Below are positions 3,302 to 57,105 of a stretch of 64,000 bases of DNA, piece after piece. Each line of letters begins with the position of its first letter. The first letter of the stretch is position 1. The stretch covers positions 7,747-71,746 of the forward strand of contig CAZFTR010000005.1 of assembly GCA_964522405.1 (NCBI GenBank), in the 5' to 3' direction. The DNA is from an uncultured Gammaproteobacteria bacterium. Its GTDB lineage: Bacteria; Patescibacteriota; Patescibacteriia; Magasanikbacterales; UBA922. Below the pieces are notes generated by a model. That model was given only the letters and a program-made list of their open reading frames with translations. It did not search any database and was not told the DNA's origin. A program made the position numbers and the translations under genes.

Positions 3302-3670
3302 ATGGGAAAAAAAGTTTTAGTCATCGAAGATGATATTATCCTGAGAAAGGCAATAGTAACAGCCCTAAAAGACGCAGAGTTTGATATTTCCGAAGCTCTT
3401 GATGGGGATGAGGGCTTGAGAAAGGCTATTTCAGAAAAGCCAGATCTAATACTTTTAGATCTAATTTTACCAAAAAAGAGTGGTTGGAGTGTTCTTGACG
3501 ACCTAAAAAAGAATGATAAGGTCAAAGATATTCCAGTCTTGGTTCTTACCGTAGTCCCGGCTCTTGAAAGTATAGAGAAGTGTACCAAAATGGGAGCTGT
3601 GGGTTATTTGATAAAATCAGATTATTCTCTAGACGATATTGTCACATCGGTCAAAGAGCATATTTCTTAA
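3302..3670 (+). CDS. single-domain response regulator (CheY-like receiver)
   Basis: VLVIEDD...PDLILLDLILPKKSGW...VLVLT...K: receiver acid pocket, T/S and conserved K. Confidence 0.7.
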   Translation: MGKKVLVIEDDIILRKAIVTALKDAEFDISEALDGDEGLRKAISEKPDLILLDLILPKKSGWSVLDDLKKNDKVKDIPVLVLTVVPALESIEKCTKMGAVGYLIKSDYSLDDIVTSVKEHIS

Positions 3671-4329: not shown

Positions 4330-4542
4330 ATGGATTTAAGCGTTATTGGTCCACTTTTTGATGTTATAGGTACTCTTATGATTGCCTTTGCTGCTCTTAG
4401 GGTGCATCATCGTGTTTTAAATGAACACAGTATTGATGATCAGGTATTCACGGTTATGAGGCGCGAGCAATTTATTGGTGTTATTGGTGTTTGTTTTGTA
4501 ATTGCTTCGTTTGCTTTACATATGGTAGAGAAATTTCTTTAA
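4330..4542 (+). CDS. small hypothetical membrane protein
   Basis: 70 aa, two hydrophobic helices. Confidence 0.35.
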   Translation: MDLSVIGPLFDVIGTLMIAFAALRVHHRVLNEHSIDDQVFTVMRREQFIGVIGVCFVIASFALHMVEKFL

Positions 4543-5907: not shown

Positions 5908-5910
5908 TAG

Positions 5911-5990
5911 TTGACAGTTGACAATTATTAGTTGACAGTTATTGATTGAATAATAAACACTGTAAACTATAAACTGTAAACTGTCCACTA
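5911..5990. promoter_or_regulatory. heptamer-repeat array (TTGACAGTT x3 ... AACTGTAAACT x3), inverted halves
   Basis: ttgacagttgacaattattagttgacagtt ... actgtaaactataaactgtaaactgtcc; 7-bp periodicity of AACTGTA; lies just upstream of the 6001 gene. Confidence 0.5.
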
Positions 5991-6000
5991 TTTATTATCT

Positions 6001-6921: not shown

Positions 6922-6925
6922 GTGC

Positions 6926-7040
6926 ATTCGGATTTACGGATAATACTGATTATCCGGATGCTGAGTATGCTTGAATACATAAACATAAATTTAATTAAAG
7001 ATATCCGGATTATCAGGAATTATCTGTATATCAGGATACC
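6926..7040. repeat. Family A repeat, locus 1 (forward copy 6926-6960 plus partial inverted copy 7003-7040)
   Basis: attcggatttacggataatactgattatccggatg matches the 40-bp element seen at 28147, 28687 (inverted) and 54397. Confidence 0.6.
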
Positions 7041-8039: not shown

Positions 8040-8623
8040 AAACATCTAATACAAAAAAAGTGTTGTATTTTCTTTTTAAATATTTCAAAACTTTCAAAAA
8101 ATAACACCAAACCAACTATTCCCATAGAAAAAATTACCGGCTGAGTGTTGAATTGAGGTAAGTTGAAATTAAAGATATATGAAATTGAGGGAAGTGCTAA
8201 ACTCCAAACAAAAATTGATAAGAAAATTGAAAATGCTAGATTCGTGAGCATGGATAAGATATTCAAAAAACTGCGTATCAGGAATATGTCAGTTTTTTTT
8301 ATTTTTAAAATTGTTTTTTTGGAAAGCTTATGATTTTTAGCTATTTTCAATACTAAAGAAAAAAATATGGCCAAAAGCCCTATTGCTAGTACCAATAACA
8401 ATAAATCAGCAAAAAAAGCATACCAACTAGGATATTGTTTTTGAATGGCAAAAGATAAGTCTGTATCAATCAAGGTTGAATTTTGGTTAAATCCAAGACT
8501 GGTAATGAATAGCAAACTACCCAAAATCCGCAAGATCCAAATGTAAGTCCTGGATTTCTTTTTTTGTTGGGCGCAAATTAATTTCATATTAAATAGTATA
8601 TAAAATAAAGACATTGTAGACAA
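8036..8623 (-). CDS. hypothetical membrane protein
   Basis: 195 aa, five or more hydrophobic helices. Confidence 0.35.
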   Translation of the reverse strand: MSTMSLFYILFNMKLICAQQKKKSRTYIWILRILGSLLFITSLGFNQNSTLIDTDLSFAIQKQYPSWYAFFADLLLLVLAIGLLAIFFSLVLKIAKNHKLSKKTILKIKKTDIFLIRSFLNILSMLTNLAFSIFLSIFVWSLALPSISYIFNFNLPQFNTQPVIFSMGIVGLVLFFESFEIFKKKIQHFFCIRCF

Positions 8624-8663
8624 ATTTATGATATAATATATTCATTAATTAAATAATAAAAAC

Positions 8664-9851
8664 ATGAAAAAATACAAACGTTTAGAAAAAGATCAGCCCA
8701 TTGTTCATCATCATGGTATTTTTCGTCGCAAATTGAATCTATTCGGGGCTGTGGCACTTATGGTCAGTGGTACAATTGGTGCTGGTGTTCTAGGTATTCC
8801 TTATGCTGTGGCCAAGGTTGGTCTTGGTGTTGGGCTCTTATATATAATTGGTATAGGAATTTTAATGACAGGATTAAACTTGTTGCTCGGCGAAGTAGTT
8901 ATTAGAACCAAACAAAAATTTCAATTATCAGGTTTGGCAAATCGATATTTGGGCAAAGTTGGAGAGTGGGTTATGACTTTTATTGTTTATTCTGCTCTTT
9001 TTGGAATACTTGTAGTTTATATAATTGGTGAGGGTGAAACTCTTTCTACTCTATTCGGTTCAACTCCTCTAGTTTGGAGCCTGGTTTTTTTCTTTGTTGC
9101 TTCAATTATTATAATGCGAGGTATTCGCACTATCAAGACTGTTGAACTTTTTTTGACTTTGGGGATTTTGGCAATAATAGTTTTAATAGCAGTATTTAGT
9201 ACTCCACATATAAGTTTTGATCATCTCAGTTATTCAAATTTAGCTTATCTACTTTTTCCTTACGGTGTTGTCCTTTTTGCTTTTCATGGTACCACTGCTG
9301 TTCCTGAGGCTCATGCGGTTTTGGTCAACAAAAATGCTTTGTTTAAAAAATCACTGATAATTGCTGGAATAGTTACTACGCTTTCTTATTGTCTTTTTGC
9401 TATAGCAGTTGTGGGAGTTACTGGCGCTGAAACTACTGAGATTGCTACAATTGGTTTGGGAAATAAACTCGGCTCGATCATGTTTGTTCTTGGAAATGTT
9501 TTTGCTGCACTTGCAATGGGAACTAGTTTTATTATGGCAGGACTCGCTCTTCGAGATTCTTTTAATTGGGATTTTCATGTAAATAAAAGAGTTTCAAACC
9601 TGATAGTTCTAGGAGTTCCACTTATAATTTTCCTTTTTGGAATCCGTGAATTTATAAAGGCTATAGATTTTGTTGGGGGAGTGCTTGGAAGTTTAGAAAT
9701 GCTTTTGATTATTGCCATTTACTGGAGAGCAAAACAAACTGGAGATGTTTCTCCTGGTAAGTACAAACTTCATCATACGGTTTTATTGGTTGCACTTTTG
9801 ATTATTGCGCTTACGTTTGGAGCAGTCTATAGTATTATTAAGTTGTTTTAA
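8664..9851 (+). CDS. amino acid permease (APC/AAAP-type)
   Basis: MVSGTIGAGVLGIPYAVAKVG N-terminal signature; about 11 TM helices. Confidence 0.6.
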   Translation: MKKYKRLEKDQPIVHHHGIFRRKLNLFGAVALMVSGTIGAGVLGIPYAVAKVGLGVGLLYIIGIGILMTGLNLLLGEVVIRTKQKFQLSGLANRYLGKVGEWVMTFIVYSALFGILVVYIIGEGETLSTLFGSTPLVWSLVFFFVASIIIMRGIRTIKTVELFLTLGILAIIVLIAVFSTPHISFDHLSYSNLAYLLFPYGVVLFAFHGTTAVPEAHAVLVNKNALFKKSLIIAGIVTTLSYCLFAIAVVGVTGAETTEIATIGLGNKLGSIMFVLGNVFAALAMGTSFIMAGLALRDSFNWDFHVNKRVSNLIVLGVPLIIFLFGIREFIKAIDFVGGVLGSLEMLLIIAIYWRAKQTGDVSPGKYKLHHTVLLVALLIIALTFGAVYSIIKLF

Positions 9852-11301: not shown

Positions 11302-11416
11302 TATTGATTTGTACTATAAAGACTCATGAGACATTCCGCAGGCACATTGTTACCGCGGAGCAAGGTAACAATAGAGCCGAGGACGGCGAAGGAGGATTTA
11401 TAGTACAAATCAATAC
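11302..11416 (+). ncRNA. Family C structured element, copy 1 (conserved core in a 19-bp perfect inverted repeat)
   Basis: tattgatttgtactataaa ... actcatgagacattccgcag ... gagccgaggacggcgaaggagga ... tttatagtacaaatcaata. Confidence 0.5.
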
Positions 11417-14296: not shown

Positions 14297-14315
14297 TTCT
14301 AAAATATAAATAAAA

Positions 14316-14345
14316 GCCAGCCCACACAAGGGCTGGTTTGATTTT
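14316..14345 (+). terminator. intrinsic terminator after cca
   Basis: gccagccc-acacaa-gggctggt then ttgatttt. Confidence 0.75.
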
Positions 14346-14349
14346 GAAG

Positions 14350-14770
14350 GGAGGGGTCGGCGCGGCAAGTTGGTCCTGAATTGCCCCTTTTATACGGGTG
14401 GTTGATGATACAACCGCGCCTTCCCCATAAATAGCCTTAGCTTGCGCCTTGGCCAAAGAACAGATGGATCGGGAACCTGGATTTGAACCAGGGACTTCAG
14501 GATTTGGAGTCCTGCACTCTACCGCTGAGTTATTCCCGAAAAAGAGAGGGCTGGGCTTGGGTCTGTCGCCAAGGCATATAGACCACAATCGGACTGGGAC
14601 GCCAGATCCAAGCTTGCCCCCATAAAAGGACAGAAACGCCATCTAGTCCACCGTGGACTAGGGGGGTGACAGCGAGTCTGTGCTGATCCGTGCTGGGCAC
14701 GGGCCCTGATGCGGGGATTTGCACCCCAATGCGCGACGAGTGCCGCGGTTTACTTTGCCTGATTTTGCGG
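14350..14770 (-). other. GC-rich structured island surrounding a tRNA-like gene
   Basis: By eye >55% GC. Perfect hairpins ctagtcca-cgg-tggactag and gggg-tgcaaat-cccc; long-range pair ggggaaggcgcgg/ccgcgccgacccc; no convincing ORF. Confidence 0.4.
14465..14539 (-). tRNA. tRNA-Trp-like (anticodon CCA), GC-rich, CCA encoded; a second and very different Trp tRNA
   Basis: Minus strand: TCGGGAA-TA-ACTC-AGCGGTA-GAGT-G-CAGGA-cTCCAaa-TCCTG-AAGTC-CCTGG-TTCAAAT-CCAGG-TTCCCGA-T-CCA. Confidence 0.6.
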
Positions 14771-15074
14771 AGTCAAATTGAGGCTTAAGCTTACAATTTT
14801 CTTGGCAACAGCATCAGGGAAGCCACTCATGGCGGCTATGTTTGTGGATGAGAAGTGCTCAACACTTGTGGCGGATTATGAATACCGCTTACCAACCCGA
14901 CAAGTGGGGCACAAGTTTACTCCCGTGAACGGGCAGACTTTCTTCACTCCTCACATTGATATCGAAAGCAATAAGAATATTATACAAAAGAGTTCTTTTT
15001 GTCAATTATAGAAGTGAATAAACAAATTGCTATTTTCAATTAAAATTGCTATAATGGCATCATAAATTTTCTAT

Positions 15075-16602: not shown

Positions 16603-16780
16603 AATAGATATTAGCTTAAATTTAGCACATATATGGTTTGTGGATTAAAAACTCATGAGACAATCCGCAGCCCCCTTGCTGATGCTGAAAGCAGATCAGC
16701 AAGAGAGGCGAGGACGGCGAAGGAGGATTTAATCCACAAACCAATGTAGAATAGAAAAAATTTAAGCTAATATCTATTTG
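16603..16780 (+). ncRNA. Family C structured element, copy 2, nested in a 22-bp outer and 16-bp inner inverted repeat
   Basis: Outer aaatagatattagcttaaattt / aaatttaagctaatatctattt; inner tggtttgtggattaaa / tttaatccacaaacca; core actcatgagacaatccgcagccccc...gagaggcgaggacggcgaaggagga. Confidence 0.5.
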
Positions 16781-16819: not shown

Positions 16820-16844
16820 ATCACTCAAGTATCATGAGTGCTAA
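16818..16844 (+). promoter_or_regulatory. CIRCE operator (HrcA binding site)
   Basis: ttaTCACTC-aagtatcat-GAGTGctaa, a 9-bp spaced inverted repeat close to the TTAGCACTC-N9-GAGTGCTAA consensus; ends 4 nt before the hrcA ATG. Confidence 0.8.
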
Positions 16845-16847
16845 AAT

Positions 16848-17528: not shown

Positions 17529-17623
17529 TAGTTGATAGTTTGCAGTTTATTGACGATAATTAGTTGTAAACAAAATCAAATTTTAATCATAAACTAATAA
17601 CTATTAACTGTAAACTATCAACT
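17529..17623. promoter_or_regulatory. heptamer-repeat array with inverted arms agttgatagtttgcagtt / aactgtaaactatcaact
   Basis: 17/18 matching inverted repeat flanking a 58-bp AT spacer; second arm is tandem NAACTNN heptads ending 7 nt before the 17631 ATG. Confidence 0.5.
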
Positions 17624-17630
17624 AACAAAT

Positions 17631-19763: not shown

Positions 19764-19820
19764 AAACTGTAAAATATTCACTATTAACTAATAACTATTA
19801 TCTATTAACTATTCACTATT
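19764..19820. promoter_or_regulatory. six tandem heptamers ttcacta-ttaacta-ataacta-ttatcta-ttaacta-ttcacta (mirror-symmetric) directly upstream of dnaK
   Basis: Exact 7-bp register 19777-19818; array ends 10 nt before the dnaK ATG. Confidence 0.55.
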
Positions 19821-21781: not shown

Positions 21782-21850
21782 TTGACAGTTAACAGGTAAC
21801 AGTTCACAACTGGAAACTACAAACTGTAACCTGATAACTGTAATAAATAT
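21782..21850. promoter_or_regulatory. heptamer array gttgaca-gttaaca-ggtaaca-gttcaca / spacer / aaactgt-aacctga-taactgt
   Basis: GTTNACA x4, then the reverse-complement heptads; ends 2 nt before the 21853 ATG. Confidence 0.5.
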
Positions 21851-21852
21851 AA

Positions 21853-22500
21853 ATGCTAAACCAATACAACAATCTAGAAGCACAAGAACAGGAGTTCACT
21901 GAACTCCTTGTTCGCTTTTCAGAAGAAGATAGAGAAGAGATTAAAGGCGCGTACGAATTAGCAAAAGAAATGCATACAGGTCAGCTCAGACATGAGGGGA
22001 CAGCTTATGTAATTCATCCACTTCGAGTCGCTATGATTTTGATGAGAGATTCGGGTATTGAAGACAAAGAATTGATAATCGCAGCACTTCTTCATGACAC
22101 AGTAGAAGACACTCCAGTTACACTAGAAGATCTGAGTAAAAAATATACTCAAAGAACAGTAGGGTTGGTAGAAGATTTAACACGCCACAGACCGGAGAGT
22201 GAAACAGAGCAGCAGAAAAAGCAAGCAAAGCCGATTAAGCTAAATTGGTTTATAAAGAACGCATCCAAAGATTCAAAACTGATCAAATGCGCAGATATAC
22301 TAGATAATATGCGAACCTGGGAATTTATTCCAGAAGGGCATTGGGGAGAGAAGAAATTTTCGCGCTGGATGGACGAAGCCCAGAATTTGTATATTCCGCT
22401 TGCTGAAGTTACAGATGAGTATTTTGTTAAGGAGATTAGAGATTTGTATGAGAAGTATAAATTAAATGAAAGATTTAAGTTGTCATCCCGAGCGGAATGA
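21853..22500 (+). CDS. HD-domain protein, (p)ppGpp hydrolase-like (RelA/SpoT HD domain only)
   Basis: GQLRHEGTAYVIHPLRVAMIL...LLHDTVEDT HD signature. Confidence 0.55.
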   Translation: MLNQYNNLEAQEQEFTELLVRFSEEDREEIKGAYELAKEMHTGQLRHEGTAYVIHPLRVAMILMRDSGIEDKELIIAALLHDTVEDTPVTLEDLSKKYTQRTVGLVEDLTRHRPESETEQQKKQAKPIKLNWFIKNASKDSKLIKCADILDNMRTWEFIPEGHWGEKKFSRWMDEAQNLYIPLAEVTDEYFVKEIRDLYEKYKLNERFKLSSRAE

Positions 22501-22580
22501 GTCCGAGCGTAGCGAGAGCGAATGAAGTCGAGGGATCCCTAGATTACTTTTTTCTTTCAGAAAACTTCACTCGGGATGAC
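22482..22580. repeat. Family B MITE-like element, copy 1
   Basis: gtcatcccgagcgg ... gaagtcgagggatccct ... tttcagaaaac ... cactcgggatgac: terminal IR GTCATCCCGAG/CTCGGGATGAC plus internal AGGGATCCCT palindrome. Confidence 0.55.
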
Positions 22581-22607
22581 AGACTATTGAACTACAACCA
22601 AAAACAT

Positions 22608-23072
22608 ATGAAAAAACTTCCAATGTTCACATCCACGCTATTATTTTTGATAGTTTTTGGATTAGCATTTTGGTATTTTAATTCGCAAGAAGTAGAAGAG
22701 GTAGAAGAAGGTATCGTAGAACAAGAAGAATTGGAAAAACCAGTCTTAATTGGAGATGAAATTGGAGTATCGATTAGTTTTAAATTAGTTTCAAGAGAAA
22801 ATTTAATAGGATCATGGCAATGGACACAGGGTCCGGCATCATGGCAAAGTATAATTCTTGATCAAGATGGAAATTACTATACACATTTGCATGATCGGCC
22901 ATTTGATAGTGGTACTTGGAATTTGGAATCAGGAATACTGTCTCTGGATTCAGAAGTTGGAGAAGAAATGGATTTATCGTTTAAAGATTTGAAATTATCA
23001 AAAGAAGATAATTTGAATATGATGCGAGTGATTGATGACGCGACTGTTAGCGTTTGGGAGAGAATTAAATAA
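22608..23072 (+). CDS. hypothetical membrane-anchored protein (start moved from ORF-track 22497, whose N-terminus lies inside the repeat)
   Basis: MKKLPMFTSTLLFLIVFGLAFWYF signal anchor; in-frame ATG at 22608. Confidence 0.4.
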   Translation: MKKLPMFTSTLLFLIVFGLAFWYFNSQEVEEVEEGIVEQEELEKPVLIGDEIGVSISFKLVSRENLIGSWQWTQGPASWQSIILDQDGNYYTHLHDRPFDSGTWNLESGILSLDSEVGEEMDLSFKDLKLSKEDNLNMMRVIDDATVSVWERIK

Positions 23073-23112
23073 TTTTAACTATCAACTATAAGCTGTCAAC
23101 TATAATTAACCT
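23073..23112. promoter_or_regulatory. heptamer array ttaacta-tcaacta-taagctg-tcaacta upstream of dnaJ
   Basis: 7-bp register of (T/A)CAACTA, ending 9 nt before the dnaJ ATG. Confidence 0.45.
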
Positions 23113-25999: not shown

Positions 26000-26032
26000 A
26001 AAGTAGTGAGTATTGATTTATGAGTTTAATTT

Positions 26033-26186
26033 GTCATCCCGAGCGAAGTTTTCTGAAAGAAAAACGAAGTCGAGGGATCCCTGTCTATGTAGTATTGCGA
26101 ACGGATTAAGAGTGTTGCGCTATACTGTATAGACAGGGATCTCTCCACTACATCTCTTACTTCGTAGAGATTGCGGTCGAGATGAC
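26033..26186. repeat. Family B MITE-like element, copy 2 (longest, extra internal hairpin)
   Basis: gtcatcccgagcgaag ... gaagtcgagggatccctgtctat ... atagacagggatc ... cggtcgagatgac. Confidence 0.55.
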
Positions 26187-26190
26187 AACT

Positions 26191-27966
26191 TTAGTTTTTC
26201 TTCAAATCACTTATAGTCAACTGCAACTCACGATTTCCATTCCATTCATTTATATCTACTTCAAAAACCATGTCTATTTTATCTCCAGGTTTGAGAATTC
26301 TTGACCAGTCTTTTCCATCTCCTTTCTGTGTATCTGAAAGATTCCAACCAATTGTTTTTCTAACTATATGATTGTTGTGTTTAACCAAAATTCTCAAGTG
26401 TTTTCCTTCTTTTCCAACCGGTTCAATTTTGTGAACTGTTAGCCCTTCTGCTAAATATTTTGGTTTGGGATTTGCTTGTCCAAATGGTTTGAAATGGTCT
26501 AGTACATCATAAAATTTCCAATCCACATCTTCTAAGTTTATTTTTGCATCAATGTCCAGGTATGCATTTATATCTGAATCTTTTGTTTGTAAATCAAATT
26601 TTTCTAAAAGTTTTTTCTTGAACTCCTCAAGTGTCTCTGGACTTGCAAGTGTAAAACCACAAGCCATTGGATGTCCACCAAATTTTTTGAACATTTCCGG
26701 CATGCTTTGTAGCGCTTCTATCATATTAAAGGCAGGCATACTTCTGCATGATCCGGTTATTTCTTCTTTGTTCATGGTCATGGCAACGGTTGGTTTGCTA
26801 TATTTTTCTTTTATTCTTCCTGAGATAAGTCCCAGAATTCCTGTCATCCAGTGAGATTTATAAACAAATAGCACTTCTTTTTTGTCCAATCCTTCATTGT
26901 TTATTTGTGAGATTGCTTCGTTTACATATTCTTCGGTCATGTCGCGCCTTTCTTTGTTGTTTTGTTCAAGCTCAAAGGCTAGATCAACTGCGTCAGTGGC
27001 ACTTTCTGTTACAAATAATTTATAACCAACATTGGCATGATTGATTCTGCCTGCTGCATTTATTCTCGGTGCTATTCGAAATCCTATTGAATGTGCATCT
27101 AGCTCTTTGGTTAAAACACCTTCCTGATCCATTAGTTTTATTTCCATTAGCAATTTTTTCATTCCCACTCGTCGAGCTTTATTTAGAACTATAAGACCAA
27201 ATTTTGTCAGGGTTCTAGATTCACCAATCAGTGGAACCATGTCAGCAACACTTGAAATTGCTACCATGTCCAGTAACCATTTTTCAAATGCTTCATGTTT
27301 TTCCCCGTTTGGAAGTACTTCGTGTTTTTCTTTGTGTTTTTTTAGAATTGCTTGAACATATTTAAAAGCAACCGCGCCTCCTGCAAGCCCTTTATCTGGG
27401 TAAGATTCTCCTTCAACTTTAGGATGGATAATTGCATAAGCAGGGGGAAGTTGGTCTGGAATACTGTGATGATCTGTGACAATTACATCAATTCCCAGCT
27501 GATTTGCAAGTTCTACTTCTTCTTTATTACTAACACCACAATCACAAGTAATAATTAAGTTTGTACCTTGTTCATTTAGGTAATTAATTGTTTTTTTGTT
27601 AAGTCCGTATCCATCTATATCCCTGTGTGGAAGAAAGACATCAAAATTATCATGACCAAGTGCTTTTAAAATTGAATGAAGAATTACTGATCCTGAAACT
27701 CCATCAGCATCATAATCTCCATGAATTGTTATTTTTTGGTTATTTTCTACAGCTTCAAAAAGCCGATCAACAGCTTTTTCCATATCTTGAAACAAGAAGG
27801 GATCATGAACATCCTGAGAATAATCTGGATGCAGAAATTCATCTATTTGTTCTTGGGTATGTAGATTTCGGTGATAGAGTAATGCTGCTACGCCACGAGG
27901 AAGTTCTGGATGAGATTCAAAAAATGACTCAGGCGGGTCTGGCAATACATTCCAGATTTTTTGCAT
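26191..27966 (-). CDS. recJ: single-stranded-DNA-specific exonuclease RecJ
   Basis: DHH motifs HGDYDADGVSG and DHH; DHHA1 GGHPMACGF. Confidence 0.85.
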   Translation of the reverse strand: MQKIWNVLPDPPESFFESHPELPRGVAALLYHRNLHTQEQIDEFLHPDYSQDVHDPFLFQDMEKAVDRLFEAVENNQKITIHGDYDADGVSGSVILHSILKALGHDNFDVFLPHRDIDGYGLNKKTINYLNEQGTNLIITCDCGVSNKEEVELANQLGIDVIVTDHHSIPDQLPPAYAIIHPKVEGESYPDKGLAGGAVAFKYVQAILKKHKEKHEVLPNGEKHEAFEKWLLDMVAISSVADMVPLIGESRTLTKFGLIVLNKARRVGMKKLLMEIKLMDQEGVLTKELDAHSIGFRIAPRINAAGRINHANVGYKLFVTESATDAVDLAFELEQNNKERRDMTEEYVNEAISQINNEGLDKKEVLFVYKSHWMTGILGLISGRIKEKYSKPTVAMTMNKEEITGSCRSMPAFNMIEALQSMPEMFKKFGGHPMACGFTLASPETLEEFKKKLLEKFDLQTKDSDINAYLDIDAKINLEDVDWKFYDVLDHFKPFGQANPKPKYLAEGLTVHKIEPVGKEGKHLRILVKHNNHIVRKTIGWNLSDTQKGDGKDWSRILKPGDKIDMVFEVDINEWNGNRELQLTISDLKKN

Positions 27967-28030
27967 AAATAGTAATAGTTGACAGTTTACAGTTAATAGT
28001 TTTGAGTGGTGAACGGTGATTGGTTTGGAT
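27967..28030. promoter_or_regulatory. heptamer array directly upstream of recJ (minus strand reads aaaacta-ttaactg-taaactg-tcaacta)
   Basis: Plus strand tagttgacagtttacagttaatagtttt; array abuts the recJ start codon. Confidence 0.5.
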
Positions 28031-28146
28031 TTGTTGATTTTAGTAAAATGCTGGGAGGACTGTGAAGAAGATCATTCCGAGAATTGCGACTACGCTGATT
28101 ACAAGCCAGAGTGTTTTGAATTTTTTGGAGTTGTACATAGATTTAA

Positions 28147-28726
28147 GGGGTATTCGGATTTACGGATAATCCTGATAATCCGGATGTTTAATTAGAATTG
28201 TTTTTCAAGTCTTGAACCAACTTTAGCTTTTTATTATAATTATAAAATTTTTCTATCATTTAATTTGTCTCTTTATCAATTTTGTTTTCTAGCTCTTTGA
28301 TTGATTTTTTCATTGCACTTGTTATTTTAAAAAAGTGGAATTTCATAGTAGTGTCATCTGTTCTCTTTTTTTTATCACCCATCATTTCATCGAAATTATC
28401 ACCAACTTCTTTTGGAAAAGTAACCTTGAAATCAGCAATCATTTCGCAAGAGTAACTATTTTTTGCCATCGAAGAGCTTAGTTCTTCGATGACTTTTTTG
28501 TATTTATTTTCTAAATCGCGTTTCCTTTTGTAAAGCCTCTCAATTTTGATGGTTTTTTTCCATTTTTTATATTCTACATTTAAAGTAATAATGGGTGTTA
28601 TGCTTGCAATTAGGCCACCAATTAAAACTCCTAATAATGTCTCTGACATATATAAATTAAATTTTATTCTATTTAACCCCAGCAATCATCCGGATTATCA
28701 GGATTATCCGTAAATCCGAATACCCC
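28147..28726. mobile_element. MITE-like cassette: 40-bp perfect terminal inverted repeats (Family A) flanking one small gene
   Basis: ggggtattcggatttacggataatcctgataatccggatg at 28147-28186 and its exact reverse complement at 28687-28726. Confidence 0.55.
28260..28649 (-). CDS. hypothetical small protein inside the inverted-repeat cassette (N-terminal TM helix, charged coiled-coil tail)
   Basis: ATG at 28649 gives MSETLLGVLIGGLIASITPIITL...; the ORF-track TTG start at 28685 runs into the repeat. Confidence 0.4.
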   Translation of the reverse strand: MSETLLGVLIGGLIASITPIITLNVEYKKWKKTIKIERLYKRKRDLENKYKKVIEELSSSMAKNSYSCEMIADFKVTFPKEVGDNFDEMMGDKKKRTDDTTMKFHFFKITSAMKKSIKELENKIDKETN

Positions 28727-28760
28727 CAAGCCAGTTTCATCAACTCATTAACGGTTTGTA

Positions 28761-30551
28761 TTACCTCTTTAACACCGCCAAATAAGCCTCAGTTGGAATA
28801 TCAACCTTACCTTTTCCCATAGCCATCATTTTCTTTTTTCCTTTTTTCTGTTTTTCTAGGAGTTTTCGTTTTCGAGTTACATCACCACCATACAGTTTTG
28901 CTGTAACATCTTTTCGAAGAGCTGAAAGTCTTTCTCCGGCAATAATTTTTCCGCCAATTGCAGCTTGAATTTTGATCACAAATTGCTGTTTTGGTAATGT
29001 TTCTTTAAGAGATTTTACAATTTTCTTTCCGGTTGCAAATGATTGATCTCTCCAAACTAGACTTGAAAGCGCTTCTACCGGTTCTTCTGAAACAAGTATA
29101 TCCATTTTCACTACATCAGCTTTTAGGTATTCTTTGAATTCATAGTTTAAAGATCCATAACCGCTGGTCACAGTTTTTAGTTTATCATAAAAATCTGTTA
29201 TTAGCGAAGCAAGAGGCATTTCATAGTGGAGCATGGCGCGCTGGTCTGATCCTGCGCTTAAATACTCAGTTGTCAGGTATTTTCCTTTTCTTTCAGAGAC
29301 AAGTCCCATGACATTTCCAATATAATCTTGGGGTACAATTATGTCTACTGTCATCCAGGGTTCTTCGATATGATCAATTTGCTGAACTTCCGGGAGCTCT
29401 TGCGGGCTTTTGATAGTCAGTTCTTCTCCATTGGTTTTAAAAATATGATAAGCAACACTTGGAACTGTGGCAATGATATGAAGTCCAAATTCTCGCCAAA
29501 GACGCTCCTGGAAAATTTCCAGATGAAGCATTCCCAAGAACCCACACCTGAAACCAAATCCAAGCGCTTGTGAGTGTTCCGGTTCATAACTTAGGGCAGA
29601 GTCACTTAATTTTAGTCGATCCATTGCCTCGCGAAGCGCTGAATAATCATCTCCTTCTTGAGGAAAAATTCCAGCAAAAACCATGGGTTTTACTTCTTTG
29701 TATCCTGGAAGTGCTTCTTCTGCGCGATCTTTTTCAAGTGTAACCGTGTCACCAACCCGAACATTTCCCAACTCTTTTAATCCTGTAACTATATATCCAA
29801 TTTGTCCGTTTTCAAGGATCGTATCGGCAACTAGGGCAGGTGAGTAGTGCCCGGTTTCTAGGATTTCAACCGATGTTTTTGATCCCATGAAATATACCTT
29901 ATCTCCTTTTTTGAGTTCTCCGTCTTGCATACGAACTGAAGCAATAACTCCACGATAATCATCATAAAAAGAATCAAAAATCATTGCTCGAGGTTTGGCA
30001 GCATCAATTTTCTCTGGGGCAGGAACTTGTTCAATAACTGCCTCAAGAATTTGCTCCACACCTTCTCCTGTTTTTCCGGAAGCGTGGAGTATTTCTTCTT
30101 TTTTGCATCCAAGCAGGTGAATTAGTTCTGCACTGGCTTTTTCAACGTCAGCATTAGGAAGATCAATTTTGTTTAAAACAGGGATAATTTTAAGGTCTTG
30201 TTCTAGAGCCAGATAGAGATTGGCGATAGTTTGCGCTTGTACTCCCTGGCTAGCGTCAACTAGAAGAATTGCTCCTTCTACTGCAGCAAGTGACCTAGAA
30301 ACTTCGTATGTAAAATCTACATGGCCCGGAGTATCGATCAGGTTCATGGTATAGCCTTTGTAATTCATGCGAACGGGCTGGAGTTTGATGGTGATTCCGC
30401 GTTCTTGCTCCAGTTCCATGGTGTCGAGAAGTTGATCTTTCATTTTTCGTTCATCTATTGTCCCTGTAACCTCAAGAAATCTATCTGCTAAGGTAGATTT
30501 TCCATGGTCTATATGTGCGATTATACAGAAATTTCGGATCTGTTGGTTCAT
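28761..30551 (-). CDS. lepA: elongation factor 4 (LepA)
   Basis: IRNFCIIAHIDHGKSTLADR G1 motif, DTPGHVDF, NKID; start moved to MNQQIRNF by comparison with the usual LepA N-terminus. Confidence 0.9.
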   Translation of the reverse strand: MNQQIRNFCIIAHIDHGKSTLADRFLEVTGTIDERKMKDQLLDTMELEQERGITIKLQPVRMNYKGYTMNLIDTPGHVDFTYEVSRSLAAVEGAILLVDASQGVQAQTIANLYLALEQDLKIIPVLNKIDLPNADVEKASAELIHLLGCKKEEILHASGKTGEGVEQILEAVIEQVPAPEKIDAAKPRAMIFDSFYDDYRGVIASVRMQDGELKKGDKVYFMGSKTSVEILETGHYSPALVADTILENGQIGYIVTGLKELGNVRVGDTVTLEKDRAEEALPGYKEVKPMVFAGIFPQEGDDYSALREAMDRLKLSDSALSYEPEHSQALGFGFRCGFLGMLHLEIFQERLWREFGLHIIATVPSVAYHIFKTNGEELTIKSPQELPEVQQIDHIEEPWMTVDIIVPQDYIGNVMGLVSERKGKYLTTEYLSAGSDQRAMLHYEMPLASLITDFYDKLKTVTSGYGSLNYEFKEYLKADVVKMDILVSEEPVEALSSLVWRDQSFATGKKIVKSLKETLPKQQFVIKIQAAIGGKIIAGERLSALRKDVTAKLYGGDVTRKRKLLEKQKKGKKKMMAMGKGKVDIPTEAYLAVLKR

Positions 30552-30689: not shown

Positions 30690-31412
30690 TTAGATAGGAA
30701 ATAATAAAAATTTCAATCCTGCCAACAAAAGAAACAATGCTACTATTGTTCGAAATTTTTGCTGAGGAATGCGGTCGCTTAGTTTTTTGGCAACTCCGGC
30801 TCCTGCAAATGACATGGGAATAAACAACAAAAATCCCCAGAGAAATTGCTGTTCAAGCGTAACATTGTTGTATATATACGTGGCTATGCGTGTGGAATCT
30901 ATAAATAATGCTATTGCTCCCATGGCTGAGATATAAACAGCCTTGGGCAGGTCAAAAGCTGACAAAAAAACTCCTCTTATAGCTCCACCAACACCAAATA
31001 TTCCGGCAAAGAATCCGGATAATCCACCTCCACTTATTGCCGTTGCCGTGTTTCTGGGTATTTTGAATTTTGGTTTTAAAAAAAGGAAAACAACATAAGC
31101 AAGTAAAAAAATTCCTAAGATTTGTGAGAGGAGTTTTTCAGAGACAGTAAATACTATACTTGCCCCCAAATAACTGGCAAGAATACCTGCAATTCCAAAT
31201 TTAAGTACAAGTTCCCATCTGAAGCCTTTTCTAAAAAATAATATTTTCCAAATATCACTAAACCAGTGGATAATCCCAACTAGTAACAGAGTTTGAGGGA
31301 GAGGTAAAGACAATAAAAGAAGCGGTATCATAATTGTTGATGTGCCAAAACCGGTAAGTGTACCAACGCCACCGGCAAAGAATGTTAATAGGGCGATATA
31401 GATTATTTCCAT
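30690..31412 (-). CDS. TSUP/TauE-SafE family membrane transporter
   Basis: 240 aa, two 4-TM repeats, Gly-rich helices GGAIRGVFL. Confidence 0.5.
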   Translation of the reverse strand: MEIIYIALLTFFAGGVGTLTGFGTSTIMIPLLLLSLPLPQTLLLVGIIHWFSDIWKILFFRKGFRWELVLKFGIAGILASYLGASIVFTVSEKLLSQILGIFLLAYVVFLFLKPKFKIPRNTATAISGGGLSGFFAGIFGVGGAIRGVFLSAFDLPKAVYISAMGAIALFIDSTRIATYIYNNVTLEQQFLWGFLLFIPMSFAGAGVAKKLSDRIPQQKFRTIVALFLLLAGLKFLLFPI

Positions 31413-31425
31413 ATTTTTAATTATT

Positions 31426-32157
31426 TTAAGATTTTTTTTCAGCCCTTATTCGAATCCCGGCTCCCCAAAATTTATCAAGAAGAAATCCAAGCGGTAAGGT
31501 AAAAATCCAAATTGGAAAAAGATACTTAAGTTTGGTTTGAAAAAGATTTGGACGAAATAATTGATAAAATAAAGTAAGTGGAAGTGGTAGAATCTGTTCA
31601 TAATATGTATTTCTCAAACACTTGGCATTTCTTTTGAAAAGAGACTTTAATTCAAAATAAAGTGCTGCATTATGTCTTTCAGTTGAAATATTTTTAAATC
31701 CTGCTTTTTGCAGTCCTTTTTTTATTTCTGATCCATTGAAAAAGTCTATATGACCAATTTCTAGCCAATAATTTGGTCTGAGCTTTAGTAGTTTTTCTTC
31801 GGATTTAAAATAGGGGACAGTAATATATAGTTTTGTGCCAGAAGTTAAGTTTTCCAAATTTGAAATCACTTCTTGCCAATTTTCAATATGCTCCAGAACT
31901 TCGGTACAAATCACTTTTTTTATATTTGAAAATTTACTAAAATCTGTTTTTGAAATATCTCCAATCTCAAAACTTCCATTGGGCATTTTTTCTTGGCAGA
32001 TTTTGATATTTTCTGGATCAAGATCAATTCCAACTACATTGAATTTTCCATAAAATTTTAGAAGTTCATTTCCTGTTCCACATCCAAGATCTAAAATAGT
32101 ATTTTTCATAGTATGTTTTCTATAGGTTTCTACGATATTTGTGCATTTTTCTAACAT
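31426..32157 (-). CDS. class I SAM-dependent methyltransferase
   Basis: ILDLGCGTGNELL motif I and VIGIDLD motif II. Confidence 0.65.
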   Translation of the reverse strand: MLEKCTNIVETYRKHTMKNTILDLGCGTGNELLKFYGKFNVVGIDLDPENIKICQEKMPNGSFEIGDISKTDFSKFSNIKKVICTEVLEHIENWQEVISNLENLTSGTKLYITVPYFKSEEKLLKLRPNYWLEIGHIDFFNGSEIKKGLQKAGFKNISTERHNAALYFELKSLFKRNAKCLRNTYYEQILPLPLTLFYQLFRPNLFQTKLKYLFPIWIFTLPLGFLLDKFWGAGIRIRAEKKS

Positions 32158-32225: not shown

Positions 32226-32320
32226 CGTCATTCCGAACCAGTGTAACTGGTGAGGAATCCCTTGTTTAATTTGGTCGTTTATCTTTCTGAAAGGGATCCC
32301 TCGCGATACTCGGGATGACG
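32226..32320. repeat. Family B MITE-like element, copy 3 (opposite orientation)
   Basis: cgtcattccgaacc ... ttctgaaagggatccctcgcgatactcgggatgacg. Confidence 0.5.
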
Positions 32321-33953: not shown

Positions 33954-34092
33954 TTTTTGGTATTCAATTTGTGTAAGTATATATTATAAAATGAAACGTT
34001 AGGCGATCAATTTAATTTGATGGTTAAATTATTTCCATAGAGCCCGGTTGAGTTTTATAATATATACTTACACAAATTGAACTGGCTATATA

Positions 34093-37254: not shown

Positions 37255-37289
37255 AAAACAAAAAACCGCTTTTTGCGGATCGTATAATT

Positions 37290-37880
37290 TGGGGTAGGGT
37301 ACGGCCAGCGCGCTACCCGAGTCCGTTGCCTCTCTCTAGGCTCCGGTTTGGACTCGGGCAGCGCGCGGCCGCTAGTTGAAGCTCCAGAAGGAGCGGTGGG
37401 ATGCGCTATGGCACCGTGTTTACTTCGTGACAGTTCTTCGCACAAAGTCGACACAGGTTGCCGCAGACGCGACACTGGGTGGGGATCGTCGCGACCCCCT
37501 CTGGATCTCCAGGCCATTCGATTCGGCCTGGGAGCAGCGCGCTTAACCGGACTTCTCCCGGAATGATGGGCGCGACTGCTGTCTCATCACAGTCTTAAAG
37601 AGCAACACGAACCGTTGGCTTTGCAAGAGTCCTCAGTTCTTGCAATAACCTCACCTGGGCTAATCAGCCCGCACTTCCACCGCCTCGCGGTGGTTCTGGC
37701 AACCCACTTTGGGGTAGGCAACGCATGACGTCCACCGGGATTGCTGATCGTATTCGTTCACGACCTGCGGGTCAAAATTCCGGGTGGCGACCGTTGCTTC
37801 GAGGTTTTGAATATAGCATAAAAAAAGCCTTTTGTCAACCCTGTCGCTCGCGAACGACAGGGTCAAGGCCCTAAGATTGA
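37290..37880. other. about 600-bp GC-rich, highly structured, ORF-poor island (candidate structured ncRNA or foreign DNA)
   Basis: Starts ggggtagggtacggcc; 20-bp imperfect hairpin ggccagcgcgctacccgagtcc / ggactcgggcagcgcgcggcc; gctcc-agaa-ggagc; ccctgtcg-ctcgcgaa-cgacaggg; minus-strand terminator-like ccgcaaaaagcggtttttgttttt at 37262-37285. Confidence 0.35.
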
Positions 37881-37941
37881 AATATAGAAAAATGAGAAAT
37901 ATCAAAATTTAGCTAAACTAAGCAAATTTTTGAAAATAAAA

Positions 37942-37972
37942 ATCCAGCTCTTGTTAAAAGCTGGATTTTGGT
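37942..37972. terminator. hairpin with flanking A and T runs (bidirectional terminator-like)
   Basis: aaaatccagct-cttgttaaa-agctggatttt. Confidence 0.5.
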
Positions 37973-37974
37973 TT

Positions 37975-38110
37975 TAAGTGAAGTGTGCACGCCGGGATCA
38001 TGGATCCCGGCGTGCCCCCAGAGGCGGGGGTCTGGACAAGTGCCCGACCCACCAGTGCGGAGCAAGGGAGTTTGACCCAAAACGCATCTAAACTTTCACC
38101 GCAAATCGCG
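37975..38110. other. second short GC-rich structured segment upstream of uvrB
   Basis: 13-bp perfect hairpin gcacgccgggatc-atg-gatcccggcgtgc; ccccc-agagg-cggggg. Confidence 0.3.
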
Positions 38111-38222
38111 GTTCCAGAGTAGAAGAAGAGGATCCTAAATAATATATCATTTTTTTGCTGTATTTACAATATTTTGCTAGTATTAAGTGGTGATATAAGT
38201 TTTTCTAAATTAGCAAAAATTT

Positions 38223-40286
38223 CTGAAATTTAAACTTAAGTCAAAATACAAACCAGCAGGAGATCAGCCTCAGGCAATTGAATCTCTGGTTTTGGGTATG
38301 CAAAAATCAGCAGAGAGACAAACCTTGCTTGGAGTCACTGGTTCTGGAAAAACTTTTACTGTTGCAAATGTGATTGAGAAGGTTCAAATGCCAACTTTGG
38401 TAATTGCTCATAATAAAACTCTGGCAGCCCAGCTTTGTAATGAATTTCGTGAATTTTTTCCAGGTAACGCAGTTGAATATTTTGTAAGTTATTATGATTA
38501 CTATCAGCCAGAGGCATATATGTCTGGCAGTGATACCTATATAGAAAAAGAAGCTCAGGTAAACGATGAAATAGATAGACTTCGTCATGCTTGCACCCAA
38601 GCGCTTATGACTCGAGATGATGTGATCATAGTAGCTTCAGTTTCAGCAATTTATGGTCTTGGTTCACCAAAAGAATATGAAAAAATTGTTTTGCATCTTG
38701 AAGTTGGACAGAAAATTGAGAGAAGAGAGATGATGAAACACCTTATTGAAATGCAATTCAACAGAACAAGCACAGATTTGAAACGAGGGATGTTTAGAAT
38801 GCGTGGTCAGGTTTTTGAAATCATGCCGGTAAATGAAGATAGAGTTTATCGGTTTGAGATAAGCGATACTATTGAATCAATAGAGGTTTTAGATCCGATC
38901 ACCAGAAAATCAACTTCAAAAAGACAAATTAGAGATGCTTGGATTTTTCCTGCTAAGCATTATGTGATTGGAGAAGAGTCAAAAGGGGTTGCCATACAGA
39001 GCATAAAAAAAGAACTAGAAGAGCAATTGAACTTTTTTAAGAAAAAAGGAAAAGTTTTGGAATATGAAAGACTTAAACAGAGAGTTAGATATGATTTGGA
39101 GATGATTGAAAATATTGGATATTGCAATGGAATTGAAAATTATTCAGCTCATTTTGAAGCTAGGAAATCCGGAGAGCCTCCATTTACACTTCTTGATTAT
39201 TTCAAAGAAACTTCGAAAAGGGTTGGTGGTTTTCTAACTGTTATAGATGAGTCTCATGTAACAACTTCTCAAATTCGTGGCATGTACAATGGAGACAGGG
39301 CTCGCAAAAATTCACTTGTAGAACATGGTTTTAGGCTTCCCAGCGCGAGAGATAATAGACCTCTTAAATTTGAAGAATTTGATGATCGAGTAGAATCTCT
39401 TGTCTATGTTTCTGCAACTCCGGCTGACTATGAATTGCAAGACAGCTCTCAAGTAGTTGAGCAGATTGTCCGACCTACCGGTTTGGTTGACCCTGAGGTG
39501 ATAATCTCACAAATTACACCGACAAAGGATAATCCCAAGAGTCAAGTCGATGATGTGATAGAGAGGATAGGACAAGTTATAAAAAAAGGTGAGCGCGCTC
39601 TTGTAACTACTCTGACCAAGAGGATGGCAGAAGATCTGAGTGAATATCTTGAAAAGCAAGATATAAAAGTTAAATACCTGCATAGTGATATTAAAACTTT
39701 GGAGAGAATTGAAGTGATAATGGCTCTGCGAAAAGGAGAGATAGATGTTATAGTGGGGGTAAATCTTCTTCGTGAGGGTCTGGATATTCCGGAAGTTTCT
39801 TTTGTTGCCATTCTTGACGCAGATAAAGAAGGATTTCTACGAAGTGAAACAAGCTTAGTGCAGACCATTGGTCGCGCAGCCAGAAATGTAAATGGGCAAG
39901 TTGTTCTCTATGCAGACCAAATAACAGGTTCAATTGAGCGAGCAATCAAGGAAACAGACAGGAGAAGAAAAATTCAAATTGAATACAATGAAAAACATGG
40001 TATAACTCCAAAAACAATTGAGAAAAATATTCGAAATATTCTCGAAGAGTTTGGAATAAGTGGAAGCAAAGTTGATAAGCAGGTAAGAGGAAGGAAAAAA
40101 ACAAAGTCACTTAGAGAAATTCTTGAACTTGATACTATTGGAGATGATAGACCGGTAAGTGATATTTTAAAAGATAAAGAACAGAAAATGAAAAAAGCAG
40201 CAAAAGACTTGGAATTTGAATTTGCAGCAGTACTTCGGGATGAAATTCGTCAATTAAAAAAATCCCAAAAAGGGATTAAGAAATAA
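38223..40286 (+). CDS. uvrB: excinuclease ABC subunit B (start codon uncertain)
   Basis: Frame open from 38214 encodes the conserved UvrB N-terminus FKLKSKYKPAGDQPQAIESLV upstream of the ORF-track start. No in-frame ATG/GTG/TTG there; CTG at 38223 proposed. Body contains GVTGSGKT, DESH and the helicase C-terminus. Confidence 0.8.
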   Translation: MKFKLKSKYKPAGDQPQAIESLVLGMQKSAERQTLLGVTGSGKTFTVANVIEKVQMPTLVIAHNKTLAAQLCNEFREFFPGNAVEYFVSYYDYYQPEAYMSGSDTYIEKEAQVNDEIDRLRHACTQALMTRDDVIIVASVSAIYGLGSPKEYEKIVLHLEVGQKIERREMMKHLIEMQFNRTSTDLKRGMFRMRGQVFEIMPVNEDRVYRFEISDTIESIEVLDPITRKSTSKRQIRDAWIFPAKHYVIGEESKGVAIQSIKKELEEQLNFFKKKGKVLEYERLKQRVRYDLEMIENIGYCNGIENYSAHFEARKSGEPPFTLLDYFKETSKRVGGFLTVIDESHVTTSQIRGMYNGDRARKNSLVEHGFRLPSARDNRPLKFEEFDDRVESLVYVSATPADYELQDSSQVVEQIVRPTGLVDPEVIISQITPTKDNPKSQVDDVIERIGQVIKKGERALVTTLTKRMAEDLSEYLEKQDIKVKYLHSDIKTLERIEVIMALRKGEIDVIVGVNLLREGLDIPEVSFVAILDADKEGFLRSETSLVQTIGRAARNVNGQVVLYADQITGSIERAIKETDRRRKIQIEYNEKHGITPKTIEKNIRNILEEFGISGSKVDKQVRGRKKTKSLREILELDTIGDDRPVSDILKDKEQKMKKAAKDLEFEFAAVLRDEIRQLKKSQKGIKK

Positions 40287-48713: not shown

Positions 48714-48740
48714 GAACCTCCGAAAGGGGGTTCTTATTTT
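48714..48740 (+). terminator. intrinsic terminator
   Basis: gaacctcc-gaaa-gggggttc then ttatttt. Confidence 0.75.
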
Positions 48741-48824
48741 GTTAGTTAACAGTTTGAAGTTGGCAGTTTATAGTTAAGAATATTTCTACCAACTATTAAC
48801 TGTAAACTATTAACTATTTATTGT
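48741..48824. promoter_or_regulatory. inverted heptamer arrays agttaac-agtttga-agttggc-agtttat-agttaag / spacer / ccaacta-ttaactg-taaacta-ttaacta
   Basis: AGTTNNN x5, then the reverse-complement NNNAACT x4 in exact 7-bp register; upstream of the 48825 gene. Confidence 0.5.
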
Positions 48825-51968: not shown

Positions 51969-51976
51969 ACATATAT

Positions 51977-52013
51977 AAAAACCTATTCTTTAATTGCAAG
52001 AATAGGTTTTTTT
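51977..52013. terminator. bidirectional intrinsic terminator
   Basis: aaaacctattct-ttaattgcaag-aataggttttttt. Confidence 0.8.
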
Positions 52014-52087
52014 GCGGCCTGTCCGAGCGTGTGGAGCGCGGGCAGGCCTTGGGTCCCTCAGATGTGGATCCATGGTATCCTCCTTGG

Positions 52088-52198
52088 TTAGAACCGGTTG
52101 GGCTCGCCCTTGTTGGTCAGTAAGACCACCACGCAGAGGCCGGTGACGACCACGATCAGGCAGCCCGCGAAAGCAAATTGAGTTGCTTTTTTGAACAT
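52088..52198 (-). CDS. GC-rich small hydrophobic peptide (36 aa), possibly leaderless
   Basis: MFKKATQFAFAGCLIVVVTGLCVVVLLTNKGEPNRF; minus-strand ttgaca-17 nt-tagcat ends 6 nt before the ATG; an aaggagga SD and a 27-aa ORF follow. Confidence 0.3.
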   Translation of the reverse strand: MFKKATQFAFAGCLIVVVTGLCVVVLLTNKGEPNRF

Positions 52199-52294
52199 AG
52201 CTTTATGCTAGTTGATTTGCCTTTGTTTGTCAATCATGATGTCAGTATGATATTCTTTAGTAAAAAGGAGTTTGATTTTTATGTGAAGTAAGTT

Positions 52295-53359: not shown

Positions 53360-53424
53360 TTAACAGTTATAACTATTTTTGTTAAACTACTAACTGTTAT
53401 CTGTAAACTGTAAACTAATAAAGT
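53360..53424. promoter_or_regulatory. heptamer array agttaac-agttata ... taaacta-ctaactg-ttatctg-taaactg-taaacta
   Basis: 7-bp register, inverted arms, ends 7 nt before the 53425 ATG. Confidence 0.45.
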
Positions 53425-54337: not shown

Positions 54338-54396
54338 TAGACGATTACAGATTTACTGATAATGGGAATCATTGATGTGTTGATGAAACTGGCTAA

Positions 54397-54437
54397 GGGG
54401 TATTCGGATTTACGGATGATCCTGATAATACGGATCG
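54397..54437. repeat. Family A repeat, locus 4 (solo copy, 3 mismatches)
   Basis: ggggtattcggatttacggatgatcctgataatacggatcg. Confidence 0.55.
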
Positions 54438-56977: not shown

Positions 56978-57105
56978 AATTGTCTGTGATTTGTGTTATG
57001 AAGACAGCTTCGCCGTCCTCGCCTCTCTTGTTACTCTGCTTTCAGCAGTAGCAAGGGGGCTGCGGATTGTTTCATCTGTCTTCATAACACAAATCACAGA
57101 CAATT
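56978..57105 (-). ncRNA. Family C structured element, copy 3 (minus orientation), in a 30-bp perfect inverted repeat
   Basis: aattgtctgtgatttgtgttatgaagacag / ctgtcttcataacacaaatcacagacaatt; minus-strand core acaatccgcagcccccttgctactgctgaaagcagagtaacaagagaggcgaggacggcgaag. Confidence 0.5.

Follow-up and report, generated by a model that had tools for sequence, protein, structure and literature searches.

Repeats with inverted ends are known from MITEs and mobile insertion cassettes, such as MIC231 and the Tn3-derived TIMEs with their mosaic derivatives (PMC4133298), in which a short non-coding intergenic form occurs beside a longer form that has the same ends around a passenger gene and lacks a transposase of its own. 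The inverted repeats described for Tn3-derived elements are 38 bp long and the duplications 5-6 bp, and the TIME-driven mosaic elements provide the comparison for two arms that capture and move a gene (PMC4133298). REP, BIME and REPIN elements with RAYT transposases (PMC3116915, PMC2817692, PMC3333891) are genome-specific intergenic hairpin repeats that occur as inverted doublets and singlets between co-directional genes. In the REP-targeting elements ISPpu9, ISPpu10 and ISPsy8 (PMC1525189), foreign DNA lies inside a palindromic intergenic repeat, the parts of which flank it. We compared these systems with a locus in a 64-kb stretch of DNA (64,000 nucleotides, hereafter the window), the RecJ of which places the host in Candidatus Magasanikbacteria (CPR/Patescibacteria). 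The feature found there works like a MITE/MIC or a REPIN, yet it shows neither the target-site duplication and defined ends of the former nor the unit palindrome and head motif of the latter.

The feature is real and is not a product of chance. The 40-mer GGGGTATTCGGATTTACGGATAATCCTGATAATCCGGATG and its inverted copy agree at 40 of 40 positions (0 mismatches), as an earlier reading made from the letters alone (the sequence-only reading) had stated, and 0 of 100 dinucleotide-preserving shuffles gave any match. The repeat finder lengthens the pair to 43 nt with 1 mismatch (28147-28189 and 28684-28726), with 494 nt between the arms. The order on the minus strand is lepA, a 36-nt leader, arm 1, orf129, arm 2, the 11 nt between arm 2 and the start codon of the 32-aa orf33, orf33 itself, a 7-mer array and recJ (Table 1). 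An nhmmer profile of the arms finds exactly five of them in the 64-kb window, forming two inverted pairs and one solo arm, and beyond these five nothing with E < 0.1. All five arms are intergenic (5/5), in agreement with the earlier reading.

Table 1. Coordinates of the bracketed unit, its neighbours and the related repeats (window coordinates unless a locus is named).
Feature	Coordinates	Strand	Description
lepA (EF-4 GTPase)	28761-30551	-	upstream neighbour
Leader	28727-28763	-	36-37 nt from lepA stop codon to arm 1; homologous to 54360-54396
Arm 1 (right arm by window coordinates)	28687-28726	-	upstream in direction of transcription; exact 40-nt CGGAT-type copy
orf129	28260-28649	-	129 aa from the ATG at 28649; membrane-anchored, all-helical
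Arm 2 (left arm by window coordinates)	28147-28186	+	downstream in the transcript; exact reverse complement of arm 1
orf33	28037-28135	-	conserved 32-aa transmembrane ORF MYNSKKFKTLWLVISVVAILGMIFFTVLPAFY, between left arm and recJ
AACTGTN solo arm	27972-28009	-	directly upstream of recJ start codon
recJ	26191-27966	-	downstream neighbour
Arms found by nhmmer profile	28147-28186 (+); 28726-28687 (-); 54397-54435 (+); 6922-6960 (+); 7040-7003 (-)
Compact sibling element	6922-7040	+	arm 6922-6960, 42-nt spacer, inverted arm 7003-7040; ~119 bp
Solo copy with leader	54360-54436	+	downstream of rplU terminator, facing convergent recR; 3 differences from the 40-mer
AACTGTN-family inverted pairs	5908-6000; 17529-17630; 21782-21852; 48735-48824; 53360-53424
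AACTGTN solo arms	19766-19819; 23073-23112; 27972-28009
Species-specific inverted 7-9-nt array pairs, CPR intergenic DNA	L012 77-174; L024 1005-1089, 16831-16892; L029 5690-5754; L036 1653-1736, 13943-14027; L056 3146-3255; L013 21232-21354 (CGGAT-type)

The comparison set consisted of 26 related loci from the genome collection and the closest relative (L095-L100). The latter has the nearest RecJ among 5.8 billion proteins and the same gene order, with corA-murJ-lepA-orf33-recJ-rnhA and hrcA-grpE-hsp20-dnaK-HD-dnaJ common to both. lepA and recJ are neighbours across ~27 related loci, with orf33 homologues between them in ~20, and orf129 occurs at this junction in 0 of the ~27, the nearest relative being 71% identical in RecJ. 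The lepA-to-orf33 spacer measures ~4-110 nt in ~16 related loci, and 47 nt in the closest relative against 625 nt in the window. The spacers of hrcA/grpE (2 against 102 nt) and recJ/rnhA (36 against 191 nt) are also longer in the window. Since the relatives have no orf129 and short spacers, ~0.62 kb comprising the arms, the leader and the gene was probably gained in this lineage, and the bracketed unit appears to be extra, lineage-specific DNA in a conserved lepA-orf33-recJ row. None of the repeat families described here occurs in the 21.8 kb of the closest relative, and they too appear to be gains in this lineage. Unrelated ORFs of 118-333 aa stand at the same junction in five relatives (L013, L024, L025, L027, L056), so this junction has repeatedly taken in new genes.

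orf33 follows lepA in the relatives either by a short spacer or after an unrelated extra ORF, and its counterpart is called as a 35-aa gene in L096, L098 and L099. In ~20 Magasanikbacteria loci the homologues are found at this position as well, with the ending …FFT.LPAFY; they are often followed by a ~135-aa membrane protein ending ADSYWDFKK, which the window does not have. We considered a preserved ancestral junction, as the sequence next to the left arm, TTAAATCTATG, is identical to that from the lepA stop codon to the orf33 start codon in L012; however, its TTA may equally be the repeat's own TAA end (TAAGGGG at 54394), and we take the match as ambiguous. Between murJ and lepA, the window has two genes (30690-32157, minus strand), one for a TauE-family exporter and one for a class I methyltransferase; the closest relative has a 310-nt spacer alone there, so this is another local gain in the window.

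The arms are short arrays whose 8-9-nt units share a (C/T)(G/T)GAT core, with the periodicity ATTCGGAT / TTACGGAT / AATCCTGAT / AATCCGGAT, and they begin (TAA)GGGGTATTCGG with no GTAG or CGTC head. The sequence-only reading had reported near-identical copies elsewhere, and arms do recur at 6922-7040 and 54397; the copy at 6926, however, is a complete compact inverted pair and not a partial one. This compact element starts directly after the stop codon of an EamA-family transporter and extends to 18 nt before the start codon of a glycosyl hydrolase. Its arms match at ~80% with an indel, and its predicted RNA hairpin has an energy of -37.6 kcal/mol (z -3.9). The copy at 54397, described as solo, is indeed a solo arm, yet it shares a further 36 nt with the lepA-side arm. 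The leader and arm together (28688-28763 against 54360-54435) align over 76 nt at 86%, so the leader belongs to the repeat unit but not to the inverted repeat. Beside this solo copy, ~54340-54378 may be a degenerate tandem copy. Orientation relative to transcription is the same at all three loci, with the forward arm first in each. The compact element and the long lepA/orf33 form are homologous in their arms only.

With moderate confidence, we read the two 40-mers as the halves of one genome-specific MITE/REP-like palindromic intergenic repeat that has been split by the passenger gene orf129. The compact form of this repeat reaches from one stop codon to the following start codon and is predicted to fold into one long hairpin; at the lepA/orf33 junction, orf129 would hold the halves 0.5 kb apart. 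The elements may have spread as non-autonomous DNA served by an enzyme encoded elsewhere, a RAYT-like HUH transposase being one candidate type, and orf129 would either have landed in the centre of an element or have been captured between two arms. A feature that counts against the split repeat is the perfect identity of the arms, since the halves of an old split element would have diverged. Compared with the ~80% of the compact pair, this identity suggests either a recent event or gene conversion.

At the three loci, the arm family follows the pattern of REP-type intercistronic hairpins, with a stop codon, arm, loop, arm and start codon in that order. As in REP, BIME and REPIN systems, the repeat is genome-specific and intergenic, and it occurs both as a singlet and as an extragenic inverted doublet with a short spacer (42 nt at 6922-7040) between co-directional genes. 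The resemblance is nevertheless loose, because a single CGGAT-type arm folds on itself weakly as DNA (-5.8 kcal/mol, z -1.7) and the unit is not a stable palindrome. The arms are also periodic arrays, no RAYT gene lies in the 64 kb, and there are three loci here and not hundreds. The sequence-only reading had itself named a REP-like sequence without target-site duplications as the finding that would speak against mobility, and half of that picture is found here. The arrangement also resembles that left by ISPpu9, ISPpu10 and ISPsy8, with additional DNA inside a palindromic intergenic repeat and parts of the repeat on either side; unlike those elements, the insert here is a single non-transposase gene without ends of its own.

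Tn3-family ends are ~40 nt long and begin GGGG, and the arm here has the same length and the same start. This likeness favours a mobile insertion cassette, in which a transposase encoded elsewhere would have used the arms as its terminal inverted repeats and moved arm-orf129-arm as one into the lepA/orf33 junction, a reading that we regard as possible but rather unlikely. The inverted repeats are perfect, the ends recur in the 64 kb as five arms spread over three loci, one of which is a compact MITE-like form, and the unit is missing from the orthologous site in all relatives. However, the target-site duplications that the earlier reading had proposed to look for beside the copies are present neither at 28147-28726, the outer 5-nt flanks of which are TTTAA and CAAGC, nor at the compact copy. 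TAA does occur near both ends of the bracketed unit, but it does not adjoin the lepA-side arm. Moreover, the lepA-side repeat homology runs 36 nt past the arm, up to the lepA stop codon, so the arms are not the ends of inserted DNA. As the earlier reading had said of transposases, no transposase, recombinase, integrase or invertase family in Pfam matched the ORFs of at least 90 aa in the 64-kb window, 14 of which have no Pfam match of any kind. A tblastn search of the window with a RAYT-like ORF also found nothing. orf129 occurs once in the window, its protein cluster comprises a single member from a single contig, and its homologues elsewhere lack these ends. In contrast to MIC231 and the TIMEs, the ends consist of arrayed 8-9-nt units, there is no known parent transposon, and placement is strictly stop-to-start in one orientation relative to transcription. 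Of the non-autonomous cassette with cargo that had been proposed, the extra DNA and the repeat family thus stand, while the duplications and the arms as ends of the insert do not. The bracketed unit lacks the hallmarks of an active transposon, and its movement as a cassette is only a possibility.

The gene between the arms is a real one. As the sequence-only reading had it, one 129-aa minus-strand gene is bracketed; its product is identical to an NCBI protein (P0001). That search gave 13 homologues, and a deeper search gave 291 cluster representatives of this widespread family, nearly all ~127 aa long. The start was placed at the ATG given in Table 1 because the homologues all begin MSETLLGV, and the family N-terminus MSETLLGVLIGGLIASITPI is strongly conserved. 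The AlphaFold model (pLDDT 85.8) is all-helical, with a long helix at residues 3-63 that takes in the hydrophobic N-terminal stretch LLGVLIGGLIASITPIITL. A helical bundle comes after this helix in the model. Searches of orf129 against Pfam, PADLOC, PHROGs, NCBIfam, Foldseek (PDB or BFVD) and viral contigs gave nothing significant. The homologues have no conserved neighbours, and their host contigs range from 31% to 58% GC. Third-position GC of orf129 is 0.285 against a genome mean of 0.277, which is typical of the genome and thus gives no compositional sign of recent import.

A flanking inverted repeat is missing at 28 of the 31 orf129 homologue loci. An exact-match version of this flank test found no case, and a local-alignment version gave two more among the 31 loci: L068, in which the homologue is flanked by a dense host repeat, and L143, with a 30-nt AT-rich inverted repeat. 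The sequences of both are unrelated to the arms of the 40-mer. We therefore rejected flanking inverted repeats as a trait of the gene family, the remaining cases being the respective host's own repeats. Since the homologues lack these repeats, the arms belong to this genome and did not arrive with orf129. The earlier reading had taken the perfect terminal repeats to imply recent mobility; this is possible, but the REP-type stop-arm-loop-arm-start layout, the typical third-position GC and the homologues without such repeats do not support it.

In L068, the host repeat is a REP-like family, CGGAACAYTATTATGGAAARCGGTA, with 7 copies in 6 kb. The copy after the stop codon of the orf129 homologue (4426-4453) is not present in the 93%-identical L069 (~3455-3480). 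In L143, the 30-nt inverted repeat (82-111 and 476-505, 93% AT-rich) lies over the start and stop codons of the closest orf129 homologue (42% identity), and although the proteins are this dissimilar, the 5' leader of that homologue, AATAAAATTTA…TATGTCAGA, is conserved with the window.

The L068 case, in which inverted host-repeat copies flank the homologue purely through repeat density and one of them is missing in L069, lends some weight to two independent copies in the window as well. Here a leader and arm would have arrived after lepA and a separate arm before orf33, with orf129 already between them; gene conversion would account for the identity, and the arms would have no joint function. 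The solo copy after rplU, with the same leader as the lepA-side copy, is a precedent for such an arrival. Nonetheless, we consider this reading improbable: arm density is low (5 in 64 kb), arms are paired otherwise only in the one compact element, and with orf129 missing in all relatives, this reading requires that the gene and each arm were gained separately at a single place.

If the split repeat is the correct reading, its arms may act at the RNA level. No promoter-like site occurs on the minus strand from arm 1 to the orf129 start codon, and there is no terminator-like site; the unit is therefore probably transcribed together with lepA and recJ. Folding of the whole lepA-orf33 spacer gives -159.5 kcal/mol (z -11.2), with the two arms as the closing stem in this one-sequence prediction. 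The arms would accordingly pair as a ~40-bp stem that loops out the orf129 cistron. A perfect duplex of ~40 bp is a textbook RNase III substrate, and the stem might thus serve for RNase III-type processing or for insulation. Long-range RNase III stems flank the 16S and 23S rRNA, where distant complementary segments on one transcript likewise enclose a complete unit in a long perfect duplex; unlike in rRNA, the enclosed unit here is an mRNA cistron and the cleavage is putative. The compact siblings would give intercistronic hairpins like those of REPs in Escherichia coli operons.

The only strong promoter-like site in the segment lies on the plus strand at 28212-28240 and points inward. This bears on an invertible switch, in which the 40-bp repeats would be crossover sites and flipping of the 0.5-kb segment would turn orf129 sense or antisense to the operon. 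The repeats are perfect and inverted around a short segment, and homologous inversion may occasionally take place with 40 bp of identity. However, no invertase or site-specific recombinase family was found among the window ORFs, no promoter faces outward, and the same arms also occur as a compact hairpin whose loop is 42 nt long, unlike the layout of an inverton. We judge such a switch very unlikely. The locus also differs from an integron gene cassette, as an arm stands on each side of orf129 where a complete palindrome would follow the gene, there is no integrase, and the neighbours of orf129 are housekeeping genes.

An inverted repeat can also result from mis-joined metagenome contigs, and the window does come from a metagenome-assembled genome. 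Exact look-ups in a contig index gave no record for orf129, orf33 or lepA, and recJ alone gave a contig. This independent Logan contig (L001) equals window positions 26060-28176 exactly, covering recJ, orf33 and the first 30 nt of the arm, and ends there, inside the left arm. If the Logan graph uses k = 31, a contig would break 30 nt into the arm at a true repeat, and the break is the expected one. In addition, the arm recurs at two other loci, and the bracketed gene is intact and a member of a real family. Hence an assembly artefact is extremely unlikely, and the contig end illustrates how such repeats break short-read assemblies.

The CGGAT type is one of several such repeat families in this genome. 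A second family, commoner and with the same layout, consists of inverted arrays of 7-nt units (NACAGTT … AACTGTN) that form stop-to-start hairpins. Three of its pairs (5908-6000, 17529-17630 and 21782-21852) fold from stop to start with z scores of -4.1 to -6.4. For one arm alone, DNA folding gives -1.1 kcal/mol (z 0). The first arm of a pair starts with TAGTT…, in which TAG either serves as the stop codon of the preceding gene or adjoins it; single arms stand before the starts of dnaK, dnaJ and recJ. STRR are intergenic tandem 7-nt units, one of which is CAACAGT, and this unit resembles the ACAGTT units found here. The STRR heptamer repeats of heterocystous cyanobacteria are mentioned in PMC4692102; the arrays in the window differ from them in being inverted pairs that bridge stop and start codons, in CPR bacteria.

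Similar arrangements occur in other CPR genomes. A compact CGGAT-type palindrome with AATCCKGAT units is present in another Magasanikbacteria species (L013), and other 7-9-nt arrays often form inverted pairs in CPR loci (Table 1) but seldom do so in the Firmicutes loci that the same search retrieved. Our literature search found no published description of inverted tandem 7-9-nt array pairs in CPR. These pairs may represent an undescribed CPR class of small mobile 'punctuation' palindromes, species-specific and made of tandem 7-9-nt units, which would insert precisely from stop to start, at times supply the stop codon, and carry or admit genes into conserved operons; we offer this broader proposal as speculative and doubtful. 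If true, punctuation elements would be a route for accessory genes into reduced genomes, with arm-orf129-arm as the first gene-bearing example. CPR (Patescibacteria) genomes are very compact and their gene gain is poorly understood. In the window, a conserved housekeeping row appears to have gained one accessory gene exactly inside a hairpin-forming repeat, and many stop-to-start junctions are filled with similar repeats that the nearest relative lacks. Repeats that are mobile and carry genes would amount to a gene-delivery route in reduced genomes, whereas repeats that act at the RNA level only would be cheap operon punctuation. The array palindromes at stop/start junctions in CPR genomes are the part most worth following.

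In a distant relative, the Parcubacteria-group genome L029, a 195-aa RAYT-like ORF with an HUH motif lies between lepA and recJ (8363-8947), beside a similar array at the same junction. It is preceded by an inverted palindromic CAAGTAAA array and matches NCBIfam NF047646 with E = 1.5e-11 at 44 bits, below the 80-bit curated cutoff. This ORF is a lead to a possible enzyme type and says nothing on the present genome.

Other functions for the arms were considered and rejected. A DnaA-box cluster was suggested by TTATCCGGA and TTATCAGGA, which share 6-7 of 9 positions with TTATCCACA, but they lack the CACA end, and GC skew has no turning point at this locus. The arms contain GGA motifs as in a CsrA-type decoy, but the commoner AACTGTN family of the same layout has none. 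TTGACA occurs in some arms, yet no -35/-10 pair has the correct spacing for promoter arrays. Exact-pattern scans with the arm TTCGGATTTACGGATNATNCTGAT gave no match in the genome collection or the JGI metagenome collection; a shorter degenerate arm motif gave 42 single matches in viral contigs, which were discarded as being about chance level by a rough estimate. Rfam returned two tRNAs only, even at E = 0.1.

The window also contains further repeats and signals. A third palindromic repeat family, of the GTCATCCCGAG…GGGATC type (22461-22586, 26027-26207 and 32230-32320), occupies the spacers that follow recJ and murJ, as well as sequence within or adjoining 22497-23072. A ~110-nt element with inverted-repeat bounds is present in three copies, at 11305-11414 (+), 16634-16743 (+) and 56987-57096 (-), which lie upstream of uppP, hrcA and dnaB, each in the orientation of the gene. 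Its conserved core is GC-rich (…CTCATGAGACA.TCCGCAG…GAGGACGGCGAAGGAGGATTT), with no Rfam match. Two more inverted repeats, 29 and 30 nt long, are perfect and have loops of 61-68 nt (33963-33991 / 34053-34081 and 56978-57007 / 57076-57105); one of them stands in the corA/murJ spacer, and the second bounds the dnaB copy of the ~110-nt element. Three non-coding islands of 0.3-1 kb (14297-15074, 37255-38291 and 51969-52294) are visibly far G+C-richer than the ~35% GC genome; they match no Rfam family even at E = 0.1 and could be divergent structured RNAs. Finally, hrcA is immediately preceded by a CIRCE-like operator at 16820-16846, with the sequence TTATCACTC-N9-GAGTGCTAA.
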